64,000 nt of DNA from a candidate division WS6 bacterium OLB20 (GCA_001567355.1 JYNZ01000005.1:3981-67980); one strand, 5' to 3'. Numbered from the stretch's first letter, positions 24,142 to 55,952 are shown. Program-made: numbers and translations. Notes: generated by a model from the letters alone, not told the origin.

Positions 24142-24224
24142 CAGTGTGGTTGATCACATCCCTCCCCCAAAACTCACCTGACCGCAATTTGAATTTCTTG
24201 CTGTGCGTACTCTACACTGCTGGT

Positions 24225-24986
24225 ATGAAACCATCAGTCGTTACCCTTTGCCTTCTGCTGCTCACTGCCTGCACACCTGCAGAAAAAACCATACCTGATG
24301 CCCCCGATCCGGTACCTCAGGTTGCCGGTGAGAGCGCAAAGACTGAATCACCTGATACAACAATGCCTGCCAGAGATTCCAGCTCACATGCGGTGCTCGA
24401 GGTCATTGACGGGGACACTGTCAGGATCGAATACGAAGACAAGCCTGTAACTGTACGGCTGATCGGCATCGACACACCCGAGACAAAACACCCGCAAAAA
24501 GGTGTGGAGTGTTTTGGACCGCAGGCCGCAGCGTTTCTGACAACCCTGCTGTCAGATCAGAACGTAACCATCGAACTCGACGAATCCCAGGGAATTTATG
24601 ACCGCTACAGCAGACTGCTTGCCTATCTGTGGCTTGGTGACACAATGATCAACGAGCTGATGGTCAGCGAAGGGTACGCATTTGAGTATACATACAACCT
24701 TCCGTACCGATATCAGGGCAGATTTATGGACGCCCAGCGTTCTGCCCGGGAGCAAAAGCGCGGACTGTGGGGAGCGGCATGCGTCACGCGTATACCTTCT
24801 GCCACAGCTGTGCCATCATGTGCATACGACTGCAACGGCCCCGATCTGGACTGTGGTGATTTTGGCGGTCAGAAGGATGCTCAGGAATTTTTTAACTGCT
24901 GCGGATTCAGCGCAGCCAATGACCCTATGCGCCTGGATAATGCGAAAGGCACAGGCAACGGACTGGCCTGCGAATCACTACCCTGA
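24225..24986 (+). CDS. secreted lipoprotein thermonuclease (SNase-like) with C-terminal Excalibur calcium-binding domain
   Basis: Lipoprotein signal MKPSVVTLCLLLLTAC. SNase motifs VRLIGIDTPET and ...RLLAYLW. C-terminal Excalibur motif DCNGPDLDCGDF..AQEFF. The ORF tool start at 24144 is probably too far upstream. Confidence 0.8.
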   Translation: MKPSVVTLCLLLLTACTPAEKTIPDAPDPVPQVAGESAKTESPDTTMPARDSSSHAVLEVIDGDTVRIEYEDKPVTVRLIGIDTPETKHPQKGVECFGPQAAAFLTTLLSDQNVTIELDESQGIYDRYSRLLAYLWLGDTMINELMVSEGYAFEYTYNLPYRYQGRFMDAQRSAREQKRGLWGAACVTRIPSATAVPSCAYDCNGPDLDCGDFGGQKDAQEFFNCCGFSAANDPMRLDNAKGTGNGLACESLP

Positions 24987-25939: not shown

Positions 25940-26137
25940 AGGTATATATTTATTATATTATATTGTACTACTTTTTAATGCTCCTGAAAAGGGTTAAAAC
26001 CTTGTCATGCAACGTTATCTGAAGTAGACTGAGTAGTAAACCCGTAGCTTCGGGTGTACTTAGTATGCATGCACTAACCGTTACTCAATACTGTCTTGCT
26101 GCACAGCATTAGACGATTGCTACACAAAACACTGCCC

Positions 26138-38000: not shown

Positions 38001-38100
38001 TGGCAGAATGGATGAGATGAAAATATGGAATTACGAACTGACACAGGAAGACATTAACAGGGAATATACATCTAACGGTGCCGCGCTGCGCTATGAATAG
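32034..38100 (+). CDS. giant secreted surface protein B (paralog of A; ~2,020 aa if the frameshift at the T8 run 36509-36516 is corrected)
   Basis: The start ATG at 32034 overlaps the gene A stop (ATGAATAA). Same architecture as A. Two ORFs (31953..36560 and 36493..38100) overlap at a T8 homopolymer; removing one T gives a continuous LamG repeat ...DSTWHFFAAVQSSTSQMELYIDGALL. The C-terminal tail NREYTSNGAALRYE is conserved. Confidence 0.7.
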
Positions 38101-41100
38101 ACACTTCCGACAGCTGAACAGACGGATCCACAGTAAAACTGCCACTGTTGTGATGGTGCTCATGGTTATTGCAACACCGCTTTTGAGTATGACTGTTTTT
38201 CCTGCTCCGGCAGCAGCAACGGGCTGGCTTGGTGAACAGTGGGAATACAGGCGTGAGATCACGATCAGCGGTAACGGCAGTGACCTTACAGATATTCAGT
38301 ACCAGCTTACAGGAATCGATACTCAGACTTTGTACAATGAGGGGAAACTGCAGTTTGACTGTCAGGATGTCCGATTCACTAATGCGTATGGTGCTCTGCT
38401 GCATTTCTGGATCGAAGATGACAGTTCGTCATGCGGGGTTGATACCTCGACCGACTTCTGGATACGACTGCCGCGCGCTGAAGCTGAAGGTACAACTATA
38501 TTCATGTACTACGGTAATCCCCAGGCACCGGCATACCTTAGTCCCGAGCGTACCTTCGACTTTTTCAGTCAGTTTTCCTCGTTCAGAGTACCCTGGTATA
38601 ACAGTGCCTGGCAGAACAGACTCAAGATCAGTATAAATCGCGAGAAAGTGAGGGGTACTATTCCCAATTTTCCGGTAGCACTCGATCTCTCGATTCTCGG
38701 ATCGGCATTCTGGCAGAACGTTGATCCGCAGGGAGACGATCTGGTGATTACAGCAGCTGACGGAACTACAAAACTAGCCCGTGAACTGGTTACGATAAAC
38801 ACCGGGACAGAAACAGGGACACTCTGGTTTAAAGCACCGGTTGTAACAAATGAAGAAGATACCGACTTCTACCTTTACTACGGAAATCCTGCTGCCACCG
38901 AGACCGATGATACTGCCACCTGGAGCGGTCACGGACTGGTTCAGCATCTTGAAGAATCTCCTACAGGCAGCGCTCCTCAGATAACCGACAGTTCGGGGAG
39001 CAACAATAATGGAACTACGAGCGGGTTTGTTTCGGGAGATCTCGTAGATACTGTAATCGATAGCGGACTTAACTTTGACGGGAACGATAACGAGGTGAAC
39101 AGTGGCATCCCGTTTGCATCGGTCACTAACAACTTCAGTTACTCCTTCTGGGCGTATCCCGAATCCACACGGACCGAGACAGTGCAGGCCAACAGCGGTA
39201 TTACCGGAACAAGCGGCCAGCGGTTTGTTGTCTACCCCGAACACGGGGGCGTGGCTTTCGGCTCAAATGCACGTGCAGGTGCAGGCGTCTCATTCGGGAC
39301 AAACGGAATATCTGTGTTTGAACATTCCGGATCCTATCTGCCATCTCTGCTCGTCCACAATCACCCGTATACCGGCTGGACCCATGTCGTGGTTGTATAC
39401 AGTGCAGGGACACCAGTTCTGTACGTTAACGGAAAATTCGTTAAGACAGGTCTCGCAAGTACCAAAACGGTGCACCCGGGTGCGTCTCTGGCAATCGGAG
39501 CATTCGGTAAATTCGACGGACTTGTTGATGAATTCCGTGTCATCAATTCTGCAGTCACACCCAACTGGATATCGACCGAGTACGAGAACCATTCATCACC
39601 CGAGACGTTTTTTTTACTGTCAGTGAATCGGTTTCTCAGGTTAATGATTCATCAGTTCAGTCGTATCCGCCCGATCCTGCAAGTGCAGATCCTGTCTGGG
39701 TGTACAACGGCACCCCGGATACGCTTGATGGAACGGTTGTACTGCAAGACGTATCGGGAGTTGACCGGTTCAGATCTGAAGAAACATTCGCGGTAAACTC
39801 AAGGCTCATCTTTCGCGCAAGACAGACAGATGTTACTCTCAACAGTGCGACAGCAGGTTTCAGCAACAGCGAACTCTCTGCTGCGGCAACCGCTGATGAC
39901 GCGGCAGTCAGACTGTTTGACAGCTCCAGTGGAGGTAATTTTGAACGCACTGTGGTCAACGAATCCGTTTCCACTTCTGGAACAGGCTCTCTGCTGGAAG
40001 ATACACAATTCCACGATTTTGAGATCGGCTGGCGTTCCGGTGCGATTGACTTCAGGATAGATAACACGTCAGACGGCACCCTGAGTACAAACGTACCAAA
40101 TGAACCATCTTATATCAGGTTCGATAACAACTCAACGTCGGTTTTATTCCAGGTCGACTGGGTTGCAGTTGCGAACTACCATGATGATCCGCCTGACTCA
40201 CAGGTTGTCGGTTCAGAACAGCGTTCTGATCGTCCGGCAGTTTACTATCCTCTGAACAGAAATCAAACAAACAGTCAGATCGCTGATGAGTACTTCAATA
40301 CACGACAGCATAAACTGACACTTGGATCGACAAATCAATCAGACAGTGCTGATCCTGTCTGGTCAGATCAGTGCATTAAAGACAGCTGTCTTCTGTTTGA
40401 CGGTGCAAATGATTTTGCCGGTCCCATCACTGATGGACAGTTTGCGTCTGTCTCAAATACTTTTTCCATGTCAATCTGGGCACATCCGACTGCAACACGC
40501 GTTACAACTGCAGAGGCAAATGGTAACAACTTCAGCGCAGGTCACCAGCACCGGCAGGCAATTGCGGCAAGTCAGGGCACCCTTTTATATGGCAGCGGCA
40601 GGGTTAGCGCAGGATTGTCCGTCGGGACTAACGGTGTCAGTGTGATTGAGCATGGATCCTCATACTTCTCCACTCCGCTCGTGCACGATATGGCATTAAG
40701 CGGCTGGAACCATATTGTTGTTGTCTATGAAAACAAGCAGCCACGCATCTATGTAAACGGATACCTTGTTCATACCGGCATCACCAGCGACCGTACCGCA
40801 ATACATCCCAGCAACTATCTTGGTGACACACAGAGCAATTACGGTACGTTTAAAGGTTTCCTCGATGAATTCAGACTGTATCCGCGCGTTCTGACAGAGA
40901 CTGAGATACGGCAGCAGTATAACGAGGGTTCATCTGTCCTGGGTGTCTCGACTGGTGGCAGTGCTTTGAGCAACGGCCTTGTCGGCTGGTGGAAGATGGA
41001 CGAGACTGCGGCAAACCAGTGCAGCGGTGGTGTCAATGACAGCTGCGATTCTTCGGGCAGCGGCAACGATATGGCCTGGGCTGGTAATACTTCAGCAAGC

Positions 41101-44100
41101 GGCGGCAAATACGGTAATGCAATGCTGTTTGACGGCACGGATGATTACATGCGCAGGACATCACCGTCAAATATTCCGACAGGCGCGAGCCCGCGCACCG
41201 TTTCAGCCTGGGTACATCTTAATGCTCTTGGCACAAAACAGGCTATCTTTCAATACGGACCGATCGGGGTCACCCGCAATACGCTGCTTTTGAATATCAG
41301 CGCTGCAAATGTTCCGGAGTTTACTTCATGGGCTGACGGCGCGACATCATCCACTGCTCTCTCAACCGGTGTCTGGTATCATCTCGTTGGCACCTACGAT
41401 GGTGACCTGACGATGAAGATCTACATCAACGGTGAGCTTGATACCACGCATACGCTTGGCGGTCAGTTGATCTCCACGGTTGATGCAACAGGTATTAATA
41501 TGGGTGCCTGGCAGGCCGGGATACTTGATGACCTCAACGGCAGACTTGATGATGTCAGGCTCTACGACCGCGAACTCAGCGAGGTTGAGGTACAGGAGTT
41601 GTATGGTTACCGTCCCGAGATGCTTGCCCACTGGAAATTTGACGAGAAGTCAGGGACAACCGCATACGACAGTACGATCAATGCCAGAAACGGCACACTT
41701 ACAAACATGCAGAGTCCGGGCTGGATAAACGGCCGGGTCGGAGGAGCACTGGAGTTTGACGGGACAAACGATTTTGTATCGGTCGGTACTCAACAGGCGT
41801 TTGCCTTTCCGCTGAGTTCATCCTTCAGCGTTTCAGCATGGATAAACCCCGCGCTTGATTCGTCCGATGACGTGATCATCGGCAATGCCTGGGATGAGGC
41901 CGGCTGGCATATGCGGGTAACCTCAGCAAACAGAGTGCGATTTATTGTGCTTACGAACGGCAGCAATAACACCTACTCTGATACAGCTGTCCTGTCTGCA
42001 GGCTGGAACCATGTTACTGCCATCTGGAACGGAAGCACTGTGAAAACGTATCTCAACGGAGTTGAAAGCAGCAGTGTTGTGAGTAACGGAACAGTGTCCA
42101 CCATTACTCCTGCAAATCCGCTGCTGATCGGAAATGATATTGCTGACCAGTCACACTACTTTAACGGTACAATTGACGATGTCAGGATCTGGAACTACCA
42201 GCTGACAGATTCAGAGGTCTACAAGGTCTTTCAGGGCGATTCACAAAGCAGCTCACAGTCAGGATTATATGAACGAACAGTTACGCTTTCATCAGCAACC
42301 CCGCTCGACAACTATCAGGTGCGTATTGCCCTGACAGGCTTTGACTACAACAAGGTACAGGCAAACGGCGAGGACATCCGATTCTACGCGGGAGGTAATC
42401 AACTGGATTACTGGATCGAGACATGGAACACTTCCGGAACATCAGTGATCTGGGTCGAGGTACCCTATGCAGGGACCAACGCACTGTCAATGCAGTATGG
42501 TGATGCCTCTGCAGTAGCGGGATCTGACGGCGCAGCAACGTTTATCTTTTTCACTGACCTCTCCAGTGATCCGGGTCTTACCGGTACTAACAGTGCCAAC
42601 GGATACGCAAATTACGATTCGGCAAATGATGATATTGTCTATTACTTCAGACGTGATACCTCATCACTGGTTAACCGCTATTTCGATCTGGGTATGACTA
42701 CCGATCCCACAAACATTGCAATTGATTTCCGCTGGCGCAGAACGTCGCAGCAGCTAAATCAGTTTGGCGACGCATTCGGTTTCATTGGTATATCAAAAGT
42801 CACAGTACCCGGGACAATCATGGGATACAATTACATCAACGATACCGATAGTGCACCAAACGCATTCTTCAGAGGCGCGTATAATGGAATTGCCGGCGGA
42901 TCCGGTATCAGCTCAAATACTACGACCTATCAGGTTTCAAGCGGAATTGACGGCACCGATGCTGAGATGACAGCCTGGCAGAACGGATCTCAGGTCATCA
43001 ATTCTCCCCGTACGATTACCTCTGATGCCGGGGGCTACTCGCGCTTTAATATCTACCGGCAAAACTATGGTAATGCACAGGACTTTAACAACCACGTCGC
43101 CCGTATTGATGACATCCGGATCAGAAAGTTTTCCGCCTCAGTTGAGCCACTGACAACAACCGTTCAGGCAGAAGGGATTGCCCTCTCCTCTGTCAACGTT
43201 ACTGCAGAGCAGACGTCATCCCCGTCTCTGATGCTCAATCTCGACAGCAAGTCCGGAACAACTGCAACAGACAGTGGAACGCTCGGAACAAACGGCACGC
43301 TTACCAATATGGATGACAGCAACTGGGTACGCGGCCGTTTCGGAAGTGCTGTAAACCTTAATGGTACAGATGAATTTATCAGCGTTGCTAACTCAACAGC
43401 ACTGAATTCAACTGATTTCTCTGTTTCCGCCTGGATCAGGACCACCAGCTCAGGTGTCTCCAGAGTGCTGACCAAGGAAGGCAACACAAACGGTCAGCAG
43501 CGTTATTCACTCGGCACCAACGTATCAGTTGCAGGGCGTGCCGATGTCAGTTTCTACGGTACCTCAGTAAACACAGCTCAAAGTACATCTACAGTAAATG
43601 ACGGTGAGTGGCATCACATCCTGGGCACATTCAGTGACACAAACAATCGCCTGCGTATCTACGTTGACGGAGTTCTTGAAGCGACGACAACCACTACGCA
43701 GACGCCGGTTGCAAGCAGCAATCCGCTTGAGATCGGCAGGTTTGACAGTGCTGCAGGTCAGTACTTTAACGGCAGCGTCGATCAGGTCAGGTACTGGGAA
43801 CGAGAACTGAGTCCGCGAGAGGCAGCAATAGAATTCGACGGTGGCAAGCCTGTTGCATGGTATAAATTTGATGAGATCGAAGGCAACACTGCATATGACC
43901 ACTCCGGAAACCAACTGCACGGCACACTCTCTAATATGAGTCCATCCACAGACTGGATAAACGGTAAAATAAACGGAGCTCTTGATTTCGATGGCTCAAA
44001 TGATGGTGTCGACCTGCCGGAAAACTCTATACTGAACTTCGGATTCAATGATGAGGTTACCGTTTCCGCCTGGGTAAAACCTACAGTACTCGGTGATGAT

Positions 44101-44514
44101 TACATATTCAGTCAGCAGAGATGTAACGGGGGTGCCATACAGCTCTATATCACCTCGCTTGGTGCAGCGATATTCAGAGTGCAAGACACTTCCAGTAACC
44201 AGACATTTGCGATATCGGACAACAGCCTGATTCAAACAGGAAGCTGGAATCATATCGTTGGCACGCGGGATAAGGAGACAGATTCTCTCCGGCTGTATGT
44301 AAATGGCAATCTAGTTGAAGATCTGGTGGATAACACCCTCACAACAATAACAAATGCTTCAACAGAGAACTGGGTCGGAAGAAGGTACCCGTGTGCTCTG
44401 ACTGATAACATTAATGCAACGATTGATGAGGTGAAGATCTGGCGCTATGCTCTCATACAAGAGGATGTCAGCAGAGAGTATACTGCAAACGGTGCAGCGC
44501 TCAGGATTGAGTAG
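38093..44514 (+). CDS. giant secreted surface protein C (paralog of A/B; ~2,140 aa if the frameshift at the T8 run 39608-39615 is corrected), with three DUF2341-like modules
   Basis: The start ATG at 38093 overlaps the gene B stop (ATGAATAG). ORFs 38078..39796 and 39700..44514 overlap at the T8 run. A third DUF2341-like module lies about 42250-42560 (...QVRIALTGFDYNKVQANGEDIRFYAGGNQLDYWIETWNTSGTSVIWVEVPYAGTNALSMQYGD). C-terminal tail SREYTANGAALRIE. Confidence 0.7.
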
Positions 44515-44621
44515 TGGTCCAGTACGATGGTCTTACAGACCCTGTGGAGTATTCGTTTGCATCTCCTTCTGCTTTCTGTTACAAATTTAGCTGTAGACGC
44601 TACTTGCGTTTGCATGGGTTA

Positions 44622-44653
44622 GAAAAGACGGTTTCGGCCGTCTTTTCTTTTTT
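44622..44653 (+). terminator. rho-independent terminator after the giant gene array
   Basis: Hairpin GAAAAGACGG-TTTCGG-CCGTCTTTTC followed by TTTTTT, located about 110 nt after the gene C stop. Confidence 0.65.
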
Positions 44654-44678
44654 AATGCTCGGTTATACTGTAGTGCAG

Positions 44679-45608
44679 ATGCAAAATGTTCCGACCACAG
44701 TAGTCACCGGTACGCTCGGTGCAGGTAAAACAACAATCATTATAAATCTGATCAGGCAGCTGCCCGCTGACTACTCCACTGTATGGCTGAAAAACGAATA
44801 CGGTGATGTCAATATTGATTCCGAACTGGCAGCGGCCAGTAACATTCAGACCAAAGAGATACTCAATGGCTGTCTGTGCTGCGTACTTGTGGGCAAGCTC
44901 CATGATGCACTTGAGGAAATCATGCGTACCCTCAAACCTGACCGGCTGATCATCGAGACTGCCGGAACAGCATACCCGTACCCTGTTATTCAGCAGATCC
45001 AGCGCACCGGGGGACTTGAGCTGGACGGGCTGATTGCAGTCGTAGACGCAGTAAATTATGAAGCATTCAGAGACAACAGTATGATGGCCAAACAGCAGGC
45101 ACGGTTTGTAGATCTGGTTATACTGAACAAAACCGGACTCGTAAACGAAAAGCAGCTGGAGAAAGCCCTCGACTTTGTCCACGATCAGTATCCAGGTGTA
45201 CCTAAGCTCAAAACTGCTGACGGAAAGATTCATAAAGATGCTCTGATCGGTCTTGATGCAAGACTTGTCTATCATCCGGAGGATCACGATGACCCCCATG
45301 AACATCACGACCACCATGGCGATCACGCTGACACGGTTGAAGCATTCGGGTTTATCGATAAAAACCGCACCTATTCACAGAAGAACATTGATGAGATGCT
45401 GAAAACCATCGAACACTGGGGTTTTGTTCGTATTAAAGGCATTATTAATACAGAGAAGGGACCCAGGCTGCTGAACGTCGTTTTTGAACGAATCACCTGG
45501 GAGGACATCCCACACTATTCCGGTCCGACCCGCATCACGTTTATGGGTAAGCAGATCAACAGACTACAAGATAAGGTACAGAACCTGTTTGCAGCCTGCG
45601 CAGACTGA
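44679..45608 (+). CDS. COG0523-family GTPase / zinc metallochaperone (CobW/ZigA/YeiR-like)
   Basis: Walker A GTLGAGKTT, metal-binding GCLCC motif, and a His-rich C-terminal tract HPEDHDDPHEHHDHHGDHAD. The ATG at 44679 is preferred over the ORF tool start at 44514 because a TATACT -10 sits at about 44663 and the upstream part overlaps a terminator. Confidence 0.75.
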   Translation: MQNVPTTVVTGTLGAGKTTIIINLIRQLPADYSTVWLKNEYGDVNIDSELAAASNIQTKEILNGCLCCVLVGKLHDALEEIMRTLKPDRLIIETAGTAYPYPVIQQIQRTGGLELDGLIAVVDAVNYEAFRDNSMMAKQQARFVDLVILNKTGLVNEKQLEKALDFVHDQYPGVPKLKTADGKIHKDALIGLDARLVYHPEDHDDPHEHHDHHGDHADTVEAFGFIDKNRTYSQKNIDEMLKTIEHWGFVRIKGIINTEKGPRLLNVVFERITWEDIPHYSGPTRITFMGKQINRLQDKVQNLFAACAD

Positions 45609-46595
45609 CTATCTCCCGGCAAACGCCTGCAGCAGAGTCTCTACGTTGTAGCGGTACATATCCTGATACGCCATCCGTTCGCTTGTCCCGCCTAATGGGT
45701 CCAGCGTATAGACAGATGCACCATAATCATCTGCAAGCGGCTGAATAACCGCATCCGAGAGCTGTGGTTCCTTAAACAGAACAGTGACATTATTCTCCGT
45801 TATCTGTTCACCAACCGACTGCAGATAGGCTGCTGACGGCTCTCTACCAGGAAATTCCTCAATTGATGCGACTATCTCAATTCCTGTTTCATCGGCAAAG
45901 TAGGAGAAGGCATCATGAAACGTGATGATCTCCGGATCAGATACCTGCGAAAACCGTGTTGCTGCATCATCTCGCAGCGCCAGCAACTCAGTACGCAGTC
46001 TGTCCAGGTTTGCATCAAATACCTCACTGTGCTCCGGAGCCAGCTTTTTCAGTTCTTCGGTGATTGTTTCTGCCATCAGCACTGCATTGCCTGCTGACAT
46101 CCAGTAGTGCGGATCTGTGCCGGTGTGTTCTTCATGCTCTTCACCGGTCTCTTCCTCATGCTCTTCACCTTCGGTGTGACTAGCCTCTTCCTCGTGCTCT
46201 TCACCTTCGTGTCCGTGTTCATCATCATAATCAAGCAGCTCGATAGTACGATCAAGCGTGACTATTCTCTCCTGTTCAACAAATTCTCCACTGACCCAGT
46301 CATCAATGCCATGACCGATGACAAAGACCAGAGCGGACTGCTCAAGGTTTTCCCTGTCCGATACCTTCAGCGAATATGTGTGCGGACTCGCACCTGCAGG
46401 CAGTATTTGTACAACTTCTATATGATCTCCGGCAATCTGACGGGTAAGACTTGCAACAGGAGGGATTGACGCAGCCACAGTCTCCTTTGATACATGTACC
46501 GGTGACCCCGTAAGAAGGACAGCAACACCGGCTGCTATGAGAATGAATGCGACAACAACTGGGAATAGTTTTTTCATGTATCTATCAATAAACAA
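45609..46595 (-). CDS. znuA: zinc ABC transporter substrate-binding protein (ZnuA/TroA family) with His/Glu-rich loop
   Basis: Signal peptide, cluster-9 SBP-like length (328 aa), and a flexible metal-binding loop HGHEGEEHEEEASHTEGEEHEEETGEEHEEHTGTDPHY typical of ZnuA. Convergent and abutting the COG0523 gene. Confidence 0.7.
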   Translation of the reverse strand: MFIDRYMKKLFPVVVAFILIAAGVAVLLTGSPVHVSKETVAASIPPVASLTRQIAGDHIEVVQILPAGASPHTYSLKVSDRENLEQSALVFVIGHGIDDWVSGEFVEQERIVTLDRTIELLDYDDEHGHEGEEHEEEASHTEGEEHEEETGEEHEEHTGTDPHYWMSAGNAVLMAETITEELKKLAPEHSEVFDANLDRLRTELLALRDDAATRFSQVSDPEIITFHDAFSYFADETGIEIVASIEEFPGREPSAAYLQSVGEQITENNVTVLFKEPQLSDAVIQPLADDYGASVYTLDPLGGTSERMAYQDMYRYNVETLLQAFAGR

Positions 46596-46642: not shown

Positions 46643-47389
46643 TTACATTAAGAGATTCTTAACCGCAGCGGACGGAACAGGCTCTGACCTGCCAACATCC
46701 GTATGCTCTCCAGCCTTTCCAAGTGGAGTGTCCGAACTGATCTTGCCGATTACATATCCCGTATCCTCTGTTTCTGTCAGAAATGTGTCGTGAACATATT
46801 GGGTCCAGTCCCATTCGGCGATCACTTCGGGCTGACCTGAATCCCTGCAGGCAGCAAGAGCAAACTTCCACATGATTGGCATAAACCGGTGACCGGGCAT
46901 GCTGTCTTCTAATCCCAGCTTTAACAGTTCGTGAGTCATCCGCTCACTGGTGGCAGTCAGTTGTGCCAGGCGGGCATAGTGATTGGCCAGATCAATGCCA
47001 GAAAGGCGCTGCCCCGGCCCTTTCAGGACAAGCTTATTGCCATCGTAAAGGTCCTGCGGCATCCGCAGATCAATTACATACGTATCTATCCAGGGCAGGT
47101 AGCAGGTGTCATCCATGGCGAGAATAACATCAAAACCGAGACCTGCAAGTCCTTGCTGTGCTTTGGCTGCTTTAGCTCTGGCTCGCTCCTGCATTGTTGT
47201 ATAGGTACGTTCCTCCTGATCCGTGATAGCGGTAGCTGCAGCAAGTGAACTGTCCAGCATGAAGGGCGCAACGAGATCCGGCTTGTTGTCCCCGAACCAG
47301 CGGGCCACTCTGTCGAACTTATCCCTGTTTCCTGTAGCAACAAATATTTTCATCAGCCGTTGTCTAAAAGGTATATCCGACTCTAACAA
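46643..47389 (-). CDS. hypothetical protein with Ham1/ITPase-like N-terminal region (MKIFVATGNRDK...AMDDTC...)
   Basis: 248 aa. The N-terminus resembles the non-canonical purine NTP pyrophosphatase signature (LATGNxGK ... DDSGL); the C-terminal ~80 aa are unassigned. Weak, motif-level only. Confidence 0.35.
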   Translation of the reverse strand: MLESDIPFRQRLMKIFVATGNRDKFDRVARWFGDNKPDLVAPFMLDSSLAAATAITDQEERTYTTMQERARAKAAKAQQGLAGLGFDVILAMDDTCYLPWIDTYVIDLRMPQDLYDGNKLVLKGPGQRLSGIDLANHYARLAQLTATSERMTHELLKLGLEDSMPGHRFMPIMWKFALAACRDSGQPEVIAEWDWTQYVHDTFLTETEDTGYVIGKISSDTPLGKAGEHTDVGRSEPVPSAAVKNLLM

Positions 47390-47409
47390 AACAGCATCTA
47401 TGATACTAT

Positions 47410-48063
47410 GTGCATATTACACATTTAATACAGATGAAAGTATTCTTCGGGTGCACAGCTGCCCAGATTCAGGATTACAAGGATTATTATCTTGGTATAC
47501 GGGACTGCCTTATCAGTGAGGGCCATATTCTTACTCGTGACTGGCTTCCGCATGCATGGGAGCGCTACCAGAAGCAGGGAGAGCTGCGCAACTTTGAACC
47601 CAGACAGATGTTTCGGGCAGTGAAGCAGGCACTGATTGATGCAGAAGCGGTGATTATCGAGGATACGGTCTCAAATTTCAGCACCGGATATGAGATAACA
47701 TTTGCCCTGCAGCAGAATAAACCGGTACTTGTACTCTGGCTGGAAGAAAAATACCATCCGTTTGAACGTACATTTCTGCATGGAGTCGAAGCCGACAACC
47801 TTGAGATCGCGGTCTACAATGCTGATACTTATGCGTCAATCATCCGCCGCTTTCTTAATAAATACGAGAACGCAAGCGAACGTCACCGGTTTAATCTTGT
47901 GCTTGGTGAAGTTGAGCGTAAGTACATAGACTGGGCGCACTACACAAAGGGCCTCAGCAGAACACATCTGATCCGCACGGCACTTCGCAATCTGATAGAC
48001 AGTGATGAGGAGTACAGTCAGTATCTGGATAATCCCTCAAAGATCAGGCCAGATGCGAGCTGA
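47410..48063 (+). CDS. hypothetical protein: nucleoside 2-deoxyribosyltransferase/LOG-like (SLOG-type Rossmannoid) domain fused to a C-terminal ribbon-helix-helix-like segment
   Basis: MKVFFG...AEAVIIEDTVSNFSTGYEITFALQQNKPVLVLW matches the NDT-like pattern (...D.GT.FE.G.A...KPV..L). The C-terminal SRTHLIRTALRNLIDSDEEY resembles a CopG/Arc RHH strand-helix. Motif-level inference. Confidence 0.4.
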   Translation: MHITHLIQMKVFFGCTAAQIQDYKDYYLGIRDCLISEGHILTRDWLPHAWERYQKQGELRNFEPRQMFRAVKQALIDAEAVIIEDTVSNFSTGYEITFALQQNKPVLVLWLEEKYHPFERTFLHGVEADNLEIAVYNADTYASIIRRFLNKYENASERHRFNLVLGEVERKYIDWAHYTKGLSRTHLIRTALRNLIDSDEEYSQYLDNPSKIRPDAS

Positions 48064-49177
48064 GCAGCATATTGGGAGTAACCGGCCGGGTATAGACCCG
48101 TCGTAAGAGAGCCTCTTTATCTTCTGTCTTGCGATACAGATCCGTCATAAAGTTGAATGCGGCAAAATACACATGCGCATAGCGTCCGTAGCGTTTGTCT
48201 GTTGCAAACCCGATTGCCTGATCAAGATCTTCTTCGCGGATATCCATTCCTTCAAGCTCGGTGCGAACCTCTTTTTTATCTCTGCCGTCATCAAAATGCA
48301 GGTATGTCGCGATGTTCTGCACTGCCATGAGCAGTCTGTTGTAGTACCACAAAAGCATTGCCTCCCGTGTGGCCGGGTTGACCTCAAATATCTGATACGC
48401 GCTTTCTGCAATAGCTTCACTGATAAAGGTCTGCGGACTGAATGTGATAACGATCCCATGCTCGCCCCGTTCTTCACGCATCAGCAGATTGTCTTTTAGA
48501 GACAGCTCTGTATGATGCCCGCCGAATCCCTCATGTGCAGCAAGCTGCAACAGGTCCAGATTGGTAAATGAGACGTCTTTATTGAGAATCAGCTCGGATG
48601 TAAATGGTGCCGTATGCTTATTGAACGCACTCCAGGGCTTACGCGAAGTTGTGGATACAGAGAACTTTGCTTCATCAGGAAGTTGGAGAAATGGTGGCAG
48701 TTTTTCCGATGCAGTTGCCAGGTTGTCTGAAAAAATCCGTGTCAGAGAACGTCTGTCTGCCAGATTCTTCTCGATTACCTCATACCGTGTCATGCGCAGC
48801 CTGTTTTCAAGATCAATGATGCGATCATCCAGACGTTTGATGTCAACATCCGACGCGCGTCTGACCATGATTCCGAAGCAGTGCTTGTTAAAGTCTGCAA
48901 AACTGCTTTGCCTGTTTTCCAGAACCTCTGTTATCTGAAAGATAATCGATTTTGCCACTGCGCTCAGATAGGCCTTGCGTTCTTTATCAAGGAGAAGTGT
49001 GATCTCGGAGTTTAGCTCAAACGAGAGTTTGTCGAGATCTATCTCTTTGGGAACGTCAGCCTTGAGTTCTTTTTTCAGTGCGGGGCTGATCCACAGCTCA
49101 GACACCGCACCCGGATCAATACTGTCCAGATACAGTGCAACACTGATAAGTTTTCTGCTTACTTTGTCAATCCTCAT
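48044..49177 (-). CDS. hypothetical protein, possibly DUF1704/QEGLA-like (HEGFGGHH motif)
   Basis: 377 aa, with AAHEGFGGHHTE reminiscent of the QEGLA-motif family or of a degenerate metal site. Low-confidence assignment. Confidence 0.3.
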   Translation of the reverse strand: MRIDKVSRKLISVALYLDSIDPGAVSELWISPALKKELKADVPKEIDLDKLSFELNSEITLLLDKERKAYLSAVAKSIIFQITEVLENRQSSFADFNKHCFGIMVRRASDVDIKRLDDRIIDLENRLRMTRYEVIEKNLADRRSLTRIFSDNLATASEKLPPFLQLPDEAKFSVSTTSRKPWSAFNKHTAPFTSELILNKDVSFTNLDLLQLAAHEGFGGHHTELSLKDNLLMREERGEHGIVITFSPQTFISEAIAESAYQIFEVNPATREAMLLWYYNRLLMAVQNIATYLHFDDGRDKKEVRTELEGMDIREEDLDQAIGFATDKRYGRYAHVYFAAFNFMTDLYRKTEDKEALLRRVYTRPVTPNMLLSSHLA

Positions 49178-50582: not shown

Positions 50583-50885
50583 TTGCGCCTGTTGCGCGAG
50601 AAGCTTTCGTTTCGCAGGTTCTTTTCGGTTATGATTGTCATCTCCCTGGCTGCACTCACTTTGGACAGGATTATGTTCCTTGTGCTCGTTCTCCTGCAGG
50701 ACACCGACATCCATCTGTCGACAATCAGGCTTGTCTCTGACCTGACCATACTTGTATTAACGCTCTGGCAGACGCTCTATCTGCGTGCGCTGCTGATGCG
50801 ACTGCTGCGTGGCAAGTCGGAACGGCTGATTACGCTTTCGCTGCTGTATTACTTTATACTGCTGCTGCTGATTAACGGCCGCTAG
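50583..50885 (+). CDS. small hypothetical membrane protein (3 TM)
   Basis: 100-aa ORF with three hydrophobic helices. Confidence 0.35.
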   Translation: MRLLREKLSFRRFFSVMIVISLAALTLDRIMFLVLVLLQDTDIHLSTIRLVSDLTILVLTLWQTLYLRALLMRLLRGKSERLITLSLLYYFILLLLINGR

Positions 50886-52131
50886 CGGTTAAGACAGCCG
50901 CACGTGCCGCTCCCGAAAGTCCCGAACGCTCAATGGTGGTGATCTTTACTCCGGGTTTATAAATATGTGTTGACCGCGCGCTGATTCTGTCTGTGAATCC
51001 GGGAAGATTATGCGCAACAGAACCGTCAGCAGTAACCTGCAGCGGCTCTGAGAATCCTTTGAATAATGCCGCGCCGGCGAGCTGAAATGCCACAACATCA
51101 GCTGCCCGGTCGCGCAGAAATACCGACAGTTCATGCATATGGTTGCGCCGGTGTTCTGGCAAGGTCAGTTTCTCGGATTCAAACGCTCCCCAGTCCCTGT
51201 TCAGAGCGCTTGTCAGCGCGCCTGTCTGAAGCGTGCTGATCGCATTAATTGTCTCATGGTCACAGTCTCCGATCATACACAAACCCATGATCAGAAGCTG
51301 ATACAGATATTTGCCGCCTACCTGAAGTTCTGACGGCTTGCGCAGCTGGATATTTGTTTTGGGATCGACATCAAGCTTCAGCAGTCTGCGTTCGATATCG
51401 TTGGTAAAAGCAGTCAAAAGTGCAGGATTATGCTCGCTGAGAAGCGGTGAACTGTAAAAACCGGCTTCAGTATTATAGAGATCACCTTCTGCATCGGTAA
51501 CGCCAATATTGTAACCTGTTCCCGCGATAAATGATGCGTGGACTCCAGGGCGGGCAAGCATCAGCGCACTGACATCATTGAGTGTTACCCAGCGCCGTGC
51601 CGAGATCCCGATCTTTGAAAATGCTTCACGCATATAGGCAGTGATATTGATATCCGAGTCTGCAATGACAAACCCTTTACCCCATTCCGGTCCAAGGTCG
51701 CTGCGGTCTGCGTCGATATTATCACCTGTCTGGACAATCCTTGCCGGAAATGAGTATACGAGTGCAATGACATCGGGATCATGTCCCTCTACTGCCATGC
51801 GAGCCACGTCTGCAAATCTTGCCGTGTAGTCCGCGACAGTCATAAATCCTCCGGTAAACTCAGCTTCTTGGGGCGAAACTGTTTCGTGCAGATCCTGATC
51901 AAACCTGAACATCGTGGCTCGCATGGTGCTGCCGCCGACATCAAGGCACAGGACCGACAGGGGATCACCTGACAGTTCTGACTGTCTGACAAAGGCAGGG
52001 AACATAGGTAACGTACTGTCTCTGCCGGCTGCACCATCACGCGCCTGGGACGCAAAATCATGCGCCAGTTCGTTCATCACATCGACGGGGAGTTCCTTAA
52101 AACCTGGATCAATTACGGGTAATGTGTCCAT
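50872..52131 (-). CDS. hexokinase-family sugar kinase (ASKHA superfamily)
   Basis: LCLDVGGSTMRATMFRF (hexokinase LDLGGTNFRV phosphate-1 motif), VYSFPARIVQ...WGKGF (sugar-binding region), VTLNDVSALMLA and ASFIAGTGYNIGV. The start at M30 (MDTLPVID) was chosen to avoid overlap with 52157..52990. Confidence 0.7.
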   Translation of the reverse strand: MDTLPVIDPGFKELPVDVMNELAHDFASQARDGAAGRDSTLPMFPAFVRQSELSGDPLSVLCLDVGGSTMRATMFRFDQDLHETVSPQEAEFTGGFMTVADYTARFADVARMAVEGHDPDVIALVYSFPARIVQTGDNIDADRSDLGPEWGKGFVIADSDINITAYMREAFSKIGISARRWVTLNDVSALMLARPGVHASFIAGTGYNIGVTDAEGDLYNTEAGFYSSPLLSEHNPALLTAFTNDIERRLLKLDVDPKTNIQLRKPSELQVGGKYLYQLLIMGLCMIGDCDHETINAISTLQTGALTSALNRDWGAFESEKLTLPEHRRNHMHELSVFLRDRAADVVAFQLAGAALFKGFSEPLQVTADGSVAHNLPGFTDRISARSTHIYKPGVKITTIERSGLSGAARAAVLTASGR

Positions 52132-52156
52132 GGACAATTGTAGCTTTTGAATTTGT

Positions 52157-52990
52157 TTATAACAAGAAGAAGTGAACCTGCTCCGGCGAAAGCTCTGATA
52201 GCGTCTCGGATGTGTCAAAGTTTACGGTAAGGGTATAACCGTCAGGGCTTCCGGCACGTTCTGGATCCTTCTTCAGTGTGCCTGATCCGACATAATACAG
52301 ATCAGGCTGTGAGGGATCCGGGATCACCTGTGCAAAAACAGGCCGGTTTTCTGCAGCTGCGCTCTGCATCGAGGGGATAAGCTGCGAAAAGGCGAATACG
52401 GTAGATGACCCTGACTCTTCTGTGCTGACAAGACTGGCGTTTTCTGCTGATACGGATATCGATACATCCTGGGCGGCAATAGTAATGTCGCCAGCACCAT
52501 CCCCTACACTTACGAGCTGCGGTCTGATATATATCTTACGGTCAGGGTAAAAGGCCCAGACCGTATTGGCCCTGAGCAGTTCCTCTTCAGAAACTGTACC
52601 CTGCGATCCTATCCCTGCCGTAGACAGGCCTGCCAGCGACGGGAAACTGCCGGACTTCTGTGCTGTTACAAGAACCTTTGCAACGCAGGTGTTACAACCC
52701 TCTTCAGCATCATCCTTTACACCGTCGCTGTTTTTGTCATAAAAGACAACCGCTGTCCGGTCTGTTGCACCCATGACTGCAGCAGGAGCATCCTGCTGGT
52801 CGTCAGATGTCTGTCCCTCTGCCGGAAGCTCGTCAGGCACTTCTACACCCTGCTCCTGCTGCTGAATCTCATCAGACTGATTAATCTTTCTTACCTGGCC
52901 AAGATTTACACTTACTGCTGCAACTATCAGCAGCACCAGCGCTGCAACTGTTTTCTGAAACGAAGATAACGAAGAAAGCCGTTCTTTCAT
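52157..52990 (-). CDS. secreted hypothetical protein
   Basis: 277 aa with an N-terminal signal/TM (VAALVLLIVAAVSVNL) and no recognisable domain. Confidence 0.45.
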   Translation of the reverse strand: MKERLSSLSSFQKTVAALVLLIVAAVSVNLGQVRKINQSDEIQQQEQGVEVPDELPAEGQTSDDQQDAPAAVMGATDRTAVVFYDKNSDGVKDDAEEGCNTCVAKVLVTAQKSGSFPSLAGLSTAGIGSQGTVSEEELLRANTVWAFYPDRKIYIRPQLVSVGDGAGDITIAAQDVSISVSAENASLVSTEESGSSTVFAFSQLIPSMQSAAAENRPVFAQVIPDPSQPDLYYVGSGTLKKDPERAGSPDGYTLTVNFDTSETLSELSPEQVHFFLL

Positions 52991-53088: not shown

Positions 53089-53763
53089 ATGTATTCACTA
53101 CTTATCGTCGAGGATGATGCGCGATTGTCTGCATGTATCTCTGAGTACCTGCACGGATATCAGGTATTTACAGAATCGACTGTCAAAGGTGGTATCCGGG
53201 TTGCCCGTAACCGCCAGGTCGATGCTGTCCTGCTCGATCTTCAGCTCGGGACTGAAAACGGACTGTCGCTGCTCAAACATCTCAGGTCTGATCTCATTGA
53301 GACACCTGTACTCATCCTGACATCTGATGAGACAACAGACACAGTATGCACTGCCATGCAGCTTGGTGCGGATGGATATATGACGAAACCATTCAGCATG
53401 CGCGAGCTTAAGGCTCGAATTGATGCACTTCTTAACCGGCCTCCACTCACACGCAAAGATATCATTGCGGTTCACGATCTTGTTCTTGACTGTAATAACT
53501 GTCAGGTGCGGCGCGGAAGGCAGACTGTAAATCTGCGCAAACGGGAGTTTGAGATTCTCAGTTACCTTGCACGTCATCAGGGCACTATTGTTACGAGACA
53601 GCAGCTGATCAGTAATGTGTGGGACAGCTACAGCGAGCCATATGCAGGAACGATCGATGTTCATATCAGCAACATCCGCAAGCAGCTTCGTTCAACCTTC
53701 GGCACTGACATGATTACGACAGCGCATGGCCTTGGCTACCAGGTACATTCACGAAAAGTGTGA
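53089..53763 (+). CDS. two-component response regulator, OmpR/PhoB family
   Basis: REC domain (LLIVEDD...D55-like LLDLQLG...K105-like MTKPF) plus a winged-helix trans_reg_C domain (...LRKREFEILSYLARHQGTIVTRQQL...). Confidence 0.85.
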   Translation: MYSLLIVEDDARLSACISEYLHGYQVFTESTVKGGIRVARNRQVDAVLLDLQLGTENGLSLLKHLRSDLIETPVLILTSDETTDTVCTAMQLGADGYMTKPFSMRELKARIDALLNRPPLTRKDIIAVHDLVLDCNNCQVRRGRQTVNLRKREFEILSYLARHQGTIVTRQQLISNVWDSYSEPYAGTIDVHISNIRKQLRSTFGTDMITTAHGLGYQVHSRKV

Positions 53764-53796: not shown

Positions 53797-54729
53797 ATGC
53801 CGGTTTCGGAATTTGAAAAAAAACTGCGCAAGTATGCTGTCTACTCTCCCGAGCGGATAGAAGAGGCACCCATTGAAGACATCTTTGCAGGCCACGAGTT
53901 TAAACCGCTCAGCCAGGGTCTGCAGGCTCGAGCCTTTCGCATGCTCGGAACAGAATGGGTGGTCAAGGAGGGGCGCTGGGATCTTGATCTGTCATTCCTG
54001 TTCGGTCAGTCGAACATCCCTATGCCTGCCCTGATGACACAAAAGATAATGCGGATCTTTCAGTTTCAGTTTCTGCCCGATCTGAAGGAAATACAGCATC
54101 AGTACCGTATGTATATGAACTTTGTCCGCTACTTCGGATACTTCCGCAAAGACGATTATTACTATCACCCCAACCGTGACCTGATCTTCTCCTCACAACG
54201 TACAATCCGGGACTCGCTGCTCCTGTACCGACCTGAGATAGAAAAATATTATGATCTGAAGTTTCCGGATAAAATTGAGGAGATCCTGACATCCAGGCTC
54301 AAATATCATAATTTTCTTCCCAAAGAATATCTGCTCTACGGTCCGTCGATCTCGCCTGAAAACAAAGGCAGAATGACTTACTTTATAGTGCAGGACTTTA
54401 TCAAGGGACGACTGCTGCACGATCTTGAAGATGACGATTTTTCAGAGGATGTGATCTATCAGCTCATCATCATGATCTACCTGATACTTCTCATGCGCAT
54501 CCATGAACATCTGCTTCCTGACACCAGACCGCGCTACCCTGTTAAAGAGGCAAGTGACTGGGTTATGAAGACAGACAATATCATAGTCTCAAAGAAGCGG
54601 GTCACGTTTATTGATACACGCTGGTTCTGGGATATGCGTGACAACTGGGTCAAGCGTGGCGGAATAATCCCGGGCCAGATTATCCGGCTCTCCAAATTCT
54701 ATTTACAGCATCTACTTGATCATGTCTGA
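53797..54729 (+). CDS. hypothetical protein with protein-kinase-like fold features
   Basis: 310 aa. Kinase-like elements are ...WVVKEG (beta3-like), HEHLLPDTRPRY (catalytic-loop-like) and VTFIDTRWF (DFG-like). Its stop overlaps the start of the next gene. Confidence 0.35.
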   Translation: MPVSEFEKKLRKYAVYSPERIEEAPIEDIFAGHEFKPLSQGLQARAFRMLGTEWVVKEGRWDLDLSFLFGQSNIPMPALMTQKIMRIFQFQFLPDLKEIQHQYRMYMNFVRYFGYFRKDDYYYHPNRDLIFSSQRTIRDSLLLYRPEIEKYYDLKFPDKIEEILTSRLKYHNFLPKEYLLYGPSISPENKGRMTYFIVQDFIKGRLLHDLEDDDFSEDVIYQLIIMIYLILLMRIHEHLLPDTRPRYPVKEASDWVMKTDNIIVSKKRVTFIDTRWFWDMRDNWVKRGGIIPGQIIRLSKFYLQHLLDHV

Positions 54730-55276
54730 AGCTCTTCTTCTTGCTATCTGGTTTTTTCTGCCAGCCGGTATTGCCAATACAGTCCCGGTATTTGCGGTTA
54801 AAATCCCTGTACTCAAAAACTTCAATGCGCCGCTCGACTTTGGTATAACGGTTGGCGGAACAAGGCTGCTGGGCAAAAACAAGACTATCCGCGGGCTCGT
54901 ATGCGGGATTATTGTCGGTATCCTGATAGTCTGGATTCAGCAGCAGATCTGGATAGGTAATGAGGCTGTCAGATCAGTTATCCGGCTTGACTACAGCTCG
55001 CTCAGTCCTGTAATCCTTGGAACACTTCTCGCTGCCGGAGCACTCGTTGGCGATGCTGTCGAGAGTTTCTTTAAGCGCAGAAGTGGAATTGAACCTGGCA
55101 GAGCATGGTTTCCATTTGATCAGACCGATTATATTATCGGCGGCATTCTGATGACACTGCCGTACGTGCAGCTCAGTATCCTTGAGTATATGCTCCTGTT
55201 TGTGATCTGGTTTATTCTGCACCCGATCTCTACAGTAGCCGGATATCTGCTTAAACTGAAGGATTCTCCGATCTGA
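54716..55276 (+). CDS. CarS/DUF46-family membrane protein (CDP-archaeol synthase-like, within the CTP-dependent cytidylyltransferase / polyprenol kinase superfamily)
   Basis: 186 aa with 5 TM helices. N-terminus LAIWFFLPAGIANTVPV, LDFG...G.R.LGKNKTIRG and C-terminal ESFFKRRSGIEPG...PFDQTDYIIG resemble CarS as recalled. Confidence 0.5.
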   Translation: MIMSEALLLAIWFFLPAGIANTVPVFAVKIPVLKNFNAPLDFGITVGGTRLLGKNKTIRGLVCGIIVGILIVWIQQQIWIGNEAVRSVIRLDYSSLSPVILGTLLAAGALVGDAVESFFKRRSGIEPGRAWFPFDQTDYIIGGILMTLPYVQLSILEYMLLFVIWFILHPISTVAGYLLKLKDSPI

Positions 55277-55952
55277 CCTTGTAGAACCGTATCAGAAAAC
55301 ACGCCCCCTTTCCTCTGCTGACAGACGTTATCCTGGCACCGAAACGGTCACGCAGCAAATCCTTTGCCAGCGACAACCCCATCCCCCTGTCCATCCCTTT
55401 GCTGCTGATTCCTTTCCGGAACAACCTGCTTTGGATTTTTTCGGGTATACCCGGCCCGTTATCCGTGATTTCTATCTGAAACCATTCTCTGGTTCTGCGT
55501 GTGCGCAACAGGACATATCCCGGATCACTGACGGTCTCAAGCGCCTCGAGGGCATTCTGAATAAGGTTACCGATTATTCTTCTGAACAGCGTAACCTCGC
55601 CCGCAATCATCCTGTCGTCATCATATTCTTCAAGCAGCCTCACGCCACGTGCTCCGGCAAAGGGCCCGTACATCTCGGCAATTGCGTGCAGCTCTGCTGC
55701 GACAGAAAAGACGGTCTCATCAGAATTTCCGTTCAGCATCCTGCGCGTTGCGATGACCATTCTGTTAAGATTGTTGAGATTTAGCGCTGCCGAGTTAAGA
55801 ATGTCTGCAATGTACTGCTGCTGGTCTTCAGTCAGTGTCGAGGATGCGCGATCGAGCTGGTACTGAATCACAGTCAGAGGACTTGTGATATCATGCAGAA
55901 AACCTTTAAACTCGTCCTTAAGGCTGAGCTCAGGGTCTTTGGTCTGTTTCAT
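55251..55952 (-). CDS. cytoplasmic sensor histidine kinase (HisKA + HATPase_c, no TM or sensor domain)
   Basis: H-box FLHDITSPLTV, N-box IGNLIQNALEA, G1 DNGPGIP and G2 GMGLSLAK. Confidence 0.8.
   Translation of the reverse strand: MKQTKDPELSLKDEFKGFLHDITSPLTVIQYQLDRASSTLTEDQQQYIADILNSAALNLNNLNRMVIATRRMLNGNSDETVFSVAAELHAIAEMYGPFAGARGVRLLEEYDDDRMIAGEVTLFRRIIGNLIQNALEALETVSDPGYVLLRTRRTREWFQIEITDNGPGIPEKIQSRLFRKGISSKGMDRGMGLSLAKDLLRDRFGARITSVSRGKGACFLIRFYKVRSENPSV

Follow-up and report, generated by a model that had tools for sequence, protein, structure and literature searches.

What holds three adjacent genes together when one appears to encode a nucleotide-sanitising enzyme, the next a nucleotide-binding fold joined to a predicted DNA-binding tail, and the third a protein with a metallopeptidase-like motif? 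The genes in question, here called A, B and C, lie within a 64,000-nucleotide stretch of DNA from candidate division WS6 (Dojkabacteria) bacterium OLB20 (GCA_001567355.1, JYNZ01000005.1:3981-67980), which we refer to in its full length as the window. A sequence-only reading had proposed that the three form a salvage or sanitisation module, possibly with a role in defence, and that B is a nucleotide- or nucleoside-processing enzyme with its own DNA-binding module. We find that the conserved unit is B together with a divergently transcribed gene for a nucleoside triphosphate (NTP) pyrophosphatase, and not the trio. With modest confidence, we interpret A and B as a divergent regulator-target pair, in which B would be a nucleotide-sensing ribbon-helix-helix (RHH) repressor of itself and of the sanitising NTPase, and in which C has no part.

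The three open reading frames (ORFs) and the motifs quoted for them are all present as described: A at 46643-47389 (-), 248 aa, holds MKIFVATGNRDK and AMDDTC; B at 47410-48063 (+), 217 aa, holds AEAVIIEDTVSNFSTGYEITFALQQNKPVLVLW and SRTHLIRTALRNLI; and C at 48044-49177 (-), 377 aa, holds HEGFGGHH. KXK26001.1 and KXK26002.1 match A and B, respectively, at 100% identity, and both the homologues and these NCBI records place the true starts further in, at 47353 for A (MKIFVATGN, 236 aa) and at 47434 for B (MKVFFGC, 209 aa), so that the two genes diverge across an 80-bp spacer (47354-47433). All three are real conserved genes and not chance ORFs, since each has relatives in the databases (216 for B at E<=1e-3, 29 for C and 7 for A). 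Base composition is unremarkable. Searches with the single sequences of A, B and C were uninformative: apart from a weak Ham1 match for A in Pfam, nothing meaningful came from Pfam, NCBIfam, PADLOC or the PDB sequences, and family profiles were required. The features on which the argument rests are the following.

46643..47353, (-): gene A, diverged Ham1/ITPase (inosine triphosphatase)-like, from weak Ham1p_like matches and its place in the partner slot of B
47354..47433, no strand: A/B divergent intergenic region, 80 bp, between the corrected starts
47408..47435, (+): operator-like repeat array, window variant, 3 mismatches from the family consensus
47434..47868, (+): gene B, N-terminal domain, approximately residues 1-145, DNPH1/MilB-like fold, from profile and Foldseek comparisons
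47878..48003, (+): gene B, C-terminal RHH-like segment, approximately residues 149-190, from the model and weak profile matches
48044..49177, (-): gene C, compact DUF885-fold, gluzincin-like predicted zinc metallopeptidase, 377 aa, from the AlphaFold (AF2) model and Foldseek
48512..48535, (-): HEGFGGHH motif of C, residues 215-222, predicted zinc-binding site, from its invariance in homologues

Conservation of gene order was assessed in loci collected by scanning one genome per GTDB species, which yielded 36 loci, with five more added from look-ups. Most B loci are labelled as belonging to ultra-small bacteria of the Patescibacteria or Candidate Phyla Radiation (CPR) and are spread over Dojkabacteria, Saccharibacteria, WWE3, Paceibacterota, Gracilibacteria, Peribacteria, Shapirobacteria and Doudnabacteria. 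Immediately upstream of B, every distinct locus (36 of 36) has a gene on the opposite strand, and by Pfam these genes fall into the following classes.

NUDIX: 27 of 36 loci
NTPase_I-T (YjjX-type ITPase/XTPase): 3 of 36 loci
Ham1p_like: 3 of 36 loci
No Pfam match at E<=0.001: 3 of 36 loci, including L004 and L006, in which the upstream gene is a small ORF and a NUDIX gene comes immediately after it

The only NUDIX partner tested, that of locus L011, is a full-length MTH1/NUDT1 homologue (E=3e-23), and to judge from an alignment consensus most other NUDIX partners appear to be its orthologues. The partner types found beside B are all predicted to be non-canonical-purine NTP pyrophosphatases, and the occupation of one slot by three structurally different sanitising enzymes argues for a functional link with B. 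Homologues of A itself stand beside B wherever this could be checked (the window, its nearest relative L001, L165 and L166), divergently oriented in every case, and the gene downstream of B is not conserved across loci. Another explanation would be that the three genes have no relation beyond lying side by side in a compact genome, with any conserved motif between A and B being no more than the promoter of B. CPR genomes are indeed gene-dense, and C is clearly independent of B in other genomes; against this, chance would not be expected to place a divergent gene from one of three families of sanitising enzymes beside B in 36 of 36 loci.

Some loci carry further genes around the pair. In L002 (4820-9662) B sits within a sanitising cluster that comprises an NTPase_I-T gene, three NUDIX genes and a Mrr-like nuclease, and in L005 three NUDIX genes surround B. 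A conserved ORF of 97-107 aa lies between B and the NUDIX gene in one sub-lineage (L004, 5612-5935; L006, 4612-4905; and L015), and its product ends in ...DDETYSSLVDYA...EHEYEH.

The intergenic region of these loci contains a second conserved feature. In nearly every locus a tandem repeat array of the form ATGCACAT-N2-TGCACAT-N4-5-TGCACAT lies upstream of B. Its core of 16 specified bases occurs exactly once in 25 of the 41 loci, always on the B strand and just before B, and when up to 3 mismatches are allowed over the 385 kb searched the array is found beside B in 40 of 41 loci. Every site with 2 mismatches or fewer is linked to B, the remainder of the 385 kb containing just six matches at 3 mismatches, and no B locus has a second array at <=2 mismatches. 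L030 has the sole inverted array (4744-4760, -), which stands ~240 nt away from B on its upstream side, in the gap of 814 bp that separates B from its YjjX-type partner, and may reflect a rearrangement; the array of L027 is degenerate. The array is conserved in this way although identity among the B proteins is no more than ~45-50% and the intergenic DNA around it varies among loci.

The array also holds a constant position relative to a promoter-like element. In 26 of 37 loci the TTGCAC of repeat 2 is followed, after 16-18 nt (17 nt in every case except three), by a TAnnnT hexamer that resembles a -10 box and whose end lies 5-10 nt short of the B ATG; shuffled sequences yielded 3.9 such loci on average and 9 at most. 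Such placement implies that the array spans the -35 element and the spacer of the B promoter, and that B is transcribed as a leaderless or near-leaderless mRNA. Spacers between the partner slot and B are typically 53-115 bp, which leaves ~10-70 bp from the array to the start of the partner gene, so that the promoter of the partner would have to adjoin or overlap the array; in the window, both promoters must be accommodated within the 80-bp A/B spacer.

In the window the array consists of ATGTGCAT (47408-47415), TACACAT (47418-47424) and TACAGAT (47429-47435), separated by the linkers AT and TTAA, with the last repeat overlapping the B ATG at 47434, and it departs from the family consensus ATGCACATNTTGCACAT at 3 positions. 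L001 shares the same variant layout, and the array is the best conserved intergenic block that it has in common with the window. No operator site beyond this one was found in the 64-kb window. A scan of metagenomes for the exact 17-mer gave at least 120 matches; among the matches listed, 11 have B directly downstream, and the others lack the third repeat, except for one simple GCACAT repeat, and look like chance occurrences. Across the window, the B loci and the metagenome matches listed there is accordingly no evidence of targets beyond the local A/B-type pair.

These observations bear on whether the motif could be a promoter and nothing else, as the unrelated-neighbour explanation holds. It is in favour of that explanation that repeat 2 also has the form of a -35-like hexamer, followed at 17 nt by a -10-like box, and also that a simple sigma-70 scan of the A/B intergenic region of the window found no canonical promoter. 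A promoter fails, however, to account for three heptads of the same sequence spaced ~10-11 bp apart, or for an 8-mer conserved upstream of the -35 position, and in the window, L001, L022 and L036 the array keeps its position beside B although it touches the start codon there and cannot be a -35 element. Taken with the invariant synteny, this leads us to regard mere adjacency as quite unlikely.

If the pair is functional, the nature of B becomes the central question. The best 120 of its 216 relatives at E<=1e-3 are those described here, and residue counts are given out of these 120; nearly all are ~200 aa long with at least 91% of the length of B matched, which indicates that both domains belong to the architecture of the family. 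The NDT-RHH fusion (NDT, nucleoside 2-deoxyribosyltransferase) noticed in the window is therefore real and common to the whole family. As a single sequence B found nothing in Pfam, NCBIfam, PADLOC or the PDB sequences. The B family profile matched DNPH1/Rcl in the PDB over residues 3-146 (E=1.8e-7), and 39 of 55 family members gave weak matches to PF05014 in Pfam. With the AF2 monomer model of B (predicted local distance difference test, pLDDT, 89.7), the top 50 Foldseek matches were all DNPH1/Rcl, MilB or BcmB, at target-normalised template modelling (TM) scores up to 0.85. The N-terminal domain has an NDT-type, Rossmann-like fold and resembles most closely the nucleoside-monophosphate N-glycosidase branch. 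The likeness to these members of the NDT superfamily (PF05014) extends over a fold of ~140 residues and includes the strand-loop-helix motif that carries the nucleophile (STGYEIT in window B, GVGYELG in rat Rcl). Of the NDT/LOG-like identity first suggested for this domain, the NDT part is upheld and the LOG/SLOG part is not, and the same 50 structural matches set aside a TIR/ThsB identity. The UniRef name of window B, 'Nucleoside 2-deoxyribosyltransferase', describes the fold only, and nothing supports the label 'antirestriction protein' that JGI gives to the B homologue P0029.

In DNPH1 the catalytic triad consists of Y24, D80 and E104; the E104Q mutant is inactive and still binds substrate, and the residue lying under the sugar is Tyr in deoxyribo-specific enzymes and Phe (F17 of MilB) where ribonucleotides are preferred (PMC10603095). 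We read the equivalent positions of B from the profile alignment to DNPH1. At the position of the nucleophile (E104 in human DNPH1, E93 in rat, E103 in MilB) 111 of 120 B members have Gln and 5 have Glu, with Ala, Leu, Ile or Val in the rest; window B is among those with Glu (E87, in GYE). The general-acid Asp (D80 of DNPH1) is absent throughout the family, its place being taken by Cys in 99 of 120 members and by Val63 in window B. The under-sugar residue, position 4 of B, is Tyr in 106 of 120 and Phe (F4) in window B, which shares the combination Phe/Tyr/Glu at positions 4/86/87 with three close relatives and in this resembles MilB. Among B proteins with A-type partners the nucleophile position is variously Glu, Gln or Ile.

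Some 35 residues are invariant in a 55-sequence alignment of B, including the block EDTVSNFSTG. No variation is seen at T34, D36, E76, D77 and N81 and hardly any at R35 and W37; of these, T34 and E76 correspond to T43 and E82 of rat Rcl, the other aligned Rcl residues being different. The Gln that prevails at the nucleophile position is the very change that inactivates DNPH1 and turns it into a substrate trap, which we read as a pseudoenzyme signature. As a whole, the B family is not a canonical DNPH1/NDT enzyme and, from these alignments, looks like a ligand-binding derivative of one.

It is nonetheless conceivable that B is an active nucleotide N-glycosidase acting after A: the A, NUDIX or YjjX enzyme would convert (d)NTP to (d)NMP and B would cleave the latter to base and (deoxy)ribose 5-phosphate, which would block re-salvage, while the RHH tail served for dimerisation or autoregulation, as in PutA or BirA. 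DNPH1, MilB and BcmB are the closest proteins to B in both sequence and structure, many residues of the B pocket are invariant, and the pairing with an NTP pyrophosphatase suits a two-step pathway equally well, the order of NTPase and then glycosidase mirroring the sanitising logic of DNPH1 (PMC10603095). The window protein and its nearest relatives, retaining the Glu of GYE and a Phe at the position of MilB F17, are where an active glycosidase would be most plausible. The residue counts argue the other way: a nucleophile replaced by Gln in 111 of 120 members and by Ala, Leu, Ile or Val in others, a general acid missing everywhere (Val in window B itself), and variation among Glu, Gln and Ile even within the proteins that have A-type partners, when the Glu-to-Gln change alone inactivates DNPH1 (PMC10603095). 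Partners in a pathway are also usually co-transcribed, and not divergent with a shared repeat array between them. On balance we consider an active glycosidase unlikely, while giving it more than token weight.

The C-terminal part of B completes the picture of a regulator. In the model, an extended segment at residues 150-158 (the RFNLVL strand) is followed by helices at 159-172 and 176-190, a layout that in this monomer is what an RHH domain would look like before dimerising. Weak matches to Pfam RHH_1 occur in 11 of 55 members (best E=0.011), a CopG-family antitoxin (PDB 7ak7, CopG/TacA) aligns in register with the tail (E=0.31), and hhalign against a set of Arc, Mnt, CopG, NikR, ParD, omega and TacA sequences gives P=61% with a pairwise E=8e-5 over 41 in-register columns. 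All seven line up with the RF.L strand and the G.SRT turn that are invariant in B, and the strand R152-F-(N/H)154-L-V156 falls on the DNA-contacting strand of Arc, Q9-F-N11-L-R13. R152, F153, L155, E161, R162, S175 and T177 are invariant in the 120 members and R176 is kept in 119. We therefore predict, with moderate support from the profiles and the model, that the tail is an RHH DNA-binding domain, as the sequence-only reading had proposed.

One position in this strand is associated with the form of the repeats. Asn at residue 154, in place of His, goes with variant repeats: of the 5 Asn154 members 3 have TACACAT as their second repeat, and of the 32 His154 members none does. Co-variation between residue 154 and the operator is suggestive on this comparison of sequences.

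An RHH domain is typical of antitoxins, and the best PDB sequence match of the B tail is the CopG-family antitoxin mentioned above. One might thus suppose that the pair is a toxin-antitoxin-like or antiphage nucleotide-signalling module, with an NDT/SLOG sensor or effector, an antitoxin-style RHH domain and a NUDIX partner that degrades the signal; weak ThsB_TIR matches in 2 of 55 B members and the restriction of the family to the genomes of only 36 GTDB species, scattered over CPR lineages, would fit such a role. Yet none of A, B and C has a match in PADLOC-DB at E<=1, and B has no relative among the 2.9 million viral contigs of IMG/VR, which also led us to reject a phage origin for B. The structural matches are to DNPH1, MilB and BcmB and not to TIR or SLOG proteins, the A/B order is divergent and not operonic, the partners (MTH1, ITPase, YjjX) are classic housekeeping sanitisers, and the flanking genes are ordinary cellular ones, none recognisably related to defence. 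The defence role that had been entertained for this locus finds no backing here, and we hold a toxin-antitoxin or antiphage module to be very improbable.

The unconserved catalytic residues, together with the operator-like repeat upstream, make it probable that B is a regulator with an enzyme-derived sensor rather than an enzyme with a DNA-binding addition; the fusion first noticed in the window is thus genuine, and its description as an enzyme probably is not. The analysis shows which folds are present, that catalytic residues have been lost, that synteny is invariant and that a repeat is conserved at a fixed place by a promoter-like element; DNA binding by B, its response to a ligand, the identity of that ligand and the direction of regulation are inferred, as follows. 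B would be a one-component transcription factor made of a dimeric DNPH1-fold nucleotide sensor and a C-terminal RHH domain. It would bind the tandem heptad array that overlaps its own promoter or start codon, within the shared intergenic region, and in doing so repress both itself and the back-to-back gene for a sanitising NTP pyrophosphatase, which is the Ham1/ITPase-like A in the window, an MTH1-like NUDIX protein in most relatives and a YjjX- or Ham1-type ITPase in a few. When a nucleoside monophosphate (NMP), most plausibly a non-canonical purine (d)NMP, occupied the DNPH1-like pocket, DNA binding would be altered, and sanitising capacity would then track the contamination of the nucleotide pool. 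More tentatively, and on the doubtful side of even, B may found an undescribed family of transcription factors, in which a DNPH1 substrate trap (Glu to Gln) joined to an RHH domain senses a damaged or non-canonical purine nucleotide and, by way of an operator near-identical across CPR phyla, lifts the repression of an MTH1-, ITPase- or YjjX-type enzyme.

Several points weigh against the regulatory interpretation. Window B keeps the nucleophile Glu and a MilB-like Phe and could still be catalytic, and the ~35 invariant N-terminal residues, among them E76, D77, T78, S80 and N81, would fit an enzyme of some other mechanism. The scores behind the RHH assignment are sub-threshold or moderate (E=0.011, E=0.31, P=61%), and the comparison set used with hhalign was a small one entered by hand. 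The conserved DNA includes the -35-like hexamer TTGCAC, so that a promoter could explain some of the conservation, and the co-variation at residue 154 rests on perhaps 2-3 independent events. The window array taken alone is not significant, 0.97 chance matches being expected in 64 kb, and it would count only through its position and its recurrence in L001. The ligand of B, finally, is a guess.

The regulated partner of B in the window would be A, which is predicted from its motifs and position to be a diverged non-canonical NTP pyrophosphatase. The Ham1/ITPase-like character first proposed for A is borne out by its N-terminal motifs and falls short of formal recognition in Pfam, where A scores 17.2 bits against the Ham1p_like (PF01725) gathering cut-off of 22.5; against TIGR00042 it scores 11.7 bits vs 145, and a single-sequence search of the PDB gave nothing significant. 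All 7 members of the A family match Ham1p_like weakly (best E=2e-5). N9, K12, E48, K61, D81 and T83 are invariant in A, and the N-terminal motifs TGNxxK, ExxxxE(N/R)AxxKA and DD(T/S) align both to the Ham1-type partners of other B loci and to RdgB, hhalign against those partners giving P=55% and E=1e-4 over the N-terminal 77 columns. No profile aligned to the C-terminal half, beyond approximately residue 95. The family is very rare: 1.84 billion representatives yielded 14 matches, of which four are short fragments or marginal. A therefore shares with Ham1/RdgB/ITPA (PF01725) the N-terminal motif set and the slot that bona fide Ham1 and YjjX proteins hold elsewhere, and differs in its sub-threshold scores, in an alignable region confined to its N-terminal third and in its rarity. 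The strongest argument for A as a sanitising NTP pyrophosphatase is that it occupies the partner slot.

C, by contrast, lies outside the A/B module. It is predicted from its model to be a compact gluzincin-like peptidase and not a nucleotide enzyme. The AF2 model (pLDDT 94.6) matched the DUF885 structures 3o0y, 3iuk and 3u24 in Foldseek (E=1e-5 to 7e-5, probability 1.00, TMq 0.47-0.53), with much weaker matches that include an M3 oligoendopeptidase (3sks) and ACE/ACE2 (M2). It is placed by structure comparison only: its family profile had no match among PDB sequences, and window C had none in Pfam. Weak Pfam matches do occur among its relatives, over the motif region, to DUF885 in 15 of 28 and to MATCAP in 10 of 28, the DUF885 matches covering exactly the HEGFGGHH stretch; even the best relative stays below the gathering scores (25.5 bits vs 27 for MATCAP, 15.8 vs 32.4 for DUF885). 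Throughout the family (n=29) the motif HE(G/A)xGGHH is invariant, and in 28 homologues H215, E216, G220, H221, H222, E224, E239, H240, E254 and E258 are invariant as well. The likeness of C to DUF885 (3o0y, 3iuk, 3u24) and MATCAP (PF08014, formerly DUF1704) thus lies in the model fold and the HE(G/A)xGGHH stretch; the differences are a length some 200 residues shorter (377 vs 546-585 aa), modest TM scores and sub-threshold matches. The DUF1704-like label given to C earlier survives in the weak MATCAP matches, with DUF885 structures as the better match of the model.

C stands beside B only in the window and in L001, and the C homologues at L042-L044 occur without B in unrelated contexts, so we rejected the A-B-C trio as a conserved module. 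What stands of the proposed salvage or sanitisation module is the pair of B and its NTP pyrophosphatase, seen in 36 of 36 loci, without the zinc-peptidase-like C. B and C converge, and their 3' ends share 20 bp in the window (48044-48063) and 4 bp in L001. On the other side of the trio, at 44514-46595, a CobW/COG0523-type GTPase gene (+) adjoins one for a ZnuA zinc-binding protein (-) with a long His/Glu-rich insert, and this zinc-homeostasis pair sits beside A and near C. A zinc link between CobW, ZnuA and C was considered and judged coincidental, since the pairing is not kept in L001, where the gene beside the trio is of GSDH/TrAA12 type and not ZnuA or CobW.

Elsewhere in the window, very large ORFs follow one another at 26096-44514 (+), with products of 1981, 1535, 535, 572 and 1604 aa; the three scanned, at 36493-44514, contain dense Laminin_G_3/concanavalin-like and DUF2341 repeats, and the series probably encodes giant surface or adhesion proteins. 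The lipoprotein thermonuclease cited earlier at 24225 is indeed an SNase-domain protein, at 24144-24986 (Pfam SNase, E=7e-26). On the far side of C, a 448-aa protein at 50872-52218 (-) matches both hexokinase domains just over the Pfam cut-offs (E ~5e-6), and at 54716-55276 (+) there is a CarS-like protein (CDP-archaeol synthase family, PF01864; E=5e-29), here in a bacterial genome, whose gene adjoins a two-component system at 53089-53763 and 55251-55952. The only RNA genes found in the window are tRNAs.

B as we interpret it differs from each of the known systems to which it can be compared. From DNPH1/Rcl and MilB it differs in its unconserved triad (Gln for Glu in 111 of 120; Cys or Val for Asp), in its C-terminal RHH-like domain and in the repeat array upstream. 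NikR and MetJ are ligand-responsive RHH regulators, and arrays of 7-bp heptads are the target of the omega repressor of pSM19035. B resembles these in its predicted strand-helix-helix unit joined to a small-molecule-binding domain and in the tandem 7-8 bp repeats, about one helical turn apart, that overlap the promoter at B loci; it differs in that its RHH is C-terminal and not N-terminal and in that its sensor has the NDT/DNPH1 fold. To our knowledge, that fold has not been described as the sensor of a transcription factor, and the searchable literature gave us no account of an NDT/DNPH1 domain fused to an RHH, or of a link between such a fusion and NUDIX enzymes. The closest parallel in design is NrtR, the Nudix-related transcriptional regulator, which uses a catalytically degenerate enzyme fold as effector domain, with a winged helix, to control NAD metabolism. 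In both, a degenerate nucleotide-enzyme fold would be reused as the sensor of a local regulator of nucleotide metabolism; the folds differ (Nudix vs NDT/DNPH1), as do the DNA-binding domains (winged helix vs RHH) and the targets (NAD metabolism vs sanitising of NTP pools).

Enzymes such as MutT/MTH1 and ITPase are generally regarded as having constitutive housekeeping roles, and CPR bacteria are thought to depend largely on salvaged nucleotides. Salvage is known to let in oxidised and modified nucleotides (PMC12887539). If the pair works as proposed, some bacteria would measure the contamination of their nucleotide pool and respond to it through a dedicated sensor-regulator of sanitising enzymes, and CPR bacteria living on salvaged nucleotides would possess an inducible circuit for nucleotide-pool sanitation. 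A pseudoenzyme of the DNPH1/NDT fold would be added to the types of sensor found among one-component regulators. B and its conserved, easily synthesised operator make a directly testable pair, which is unusual where regulators are almost entirely uncharacterised, as they are in CPR bacteria. Synteny with B would also provide a context-based handle by which the orphan A family may be annotated as sanitising NTPases.

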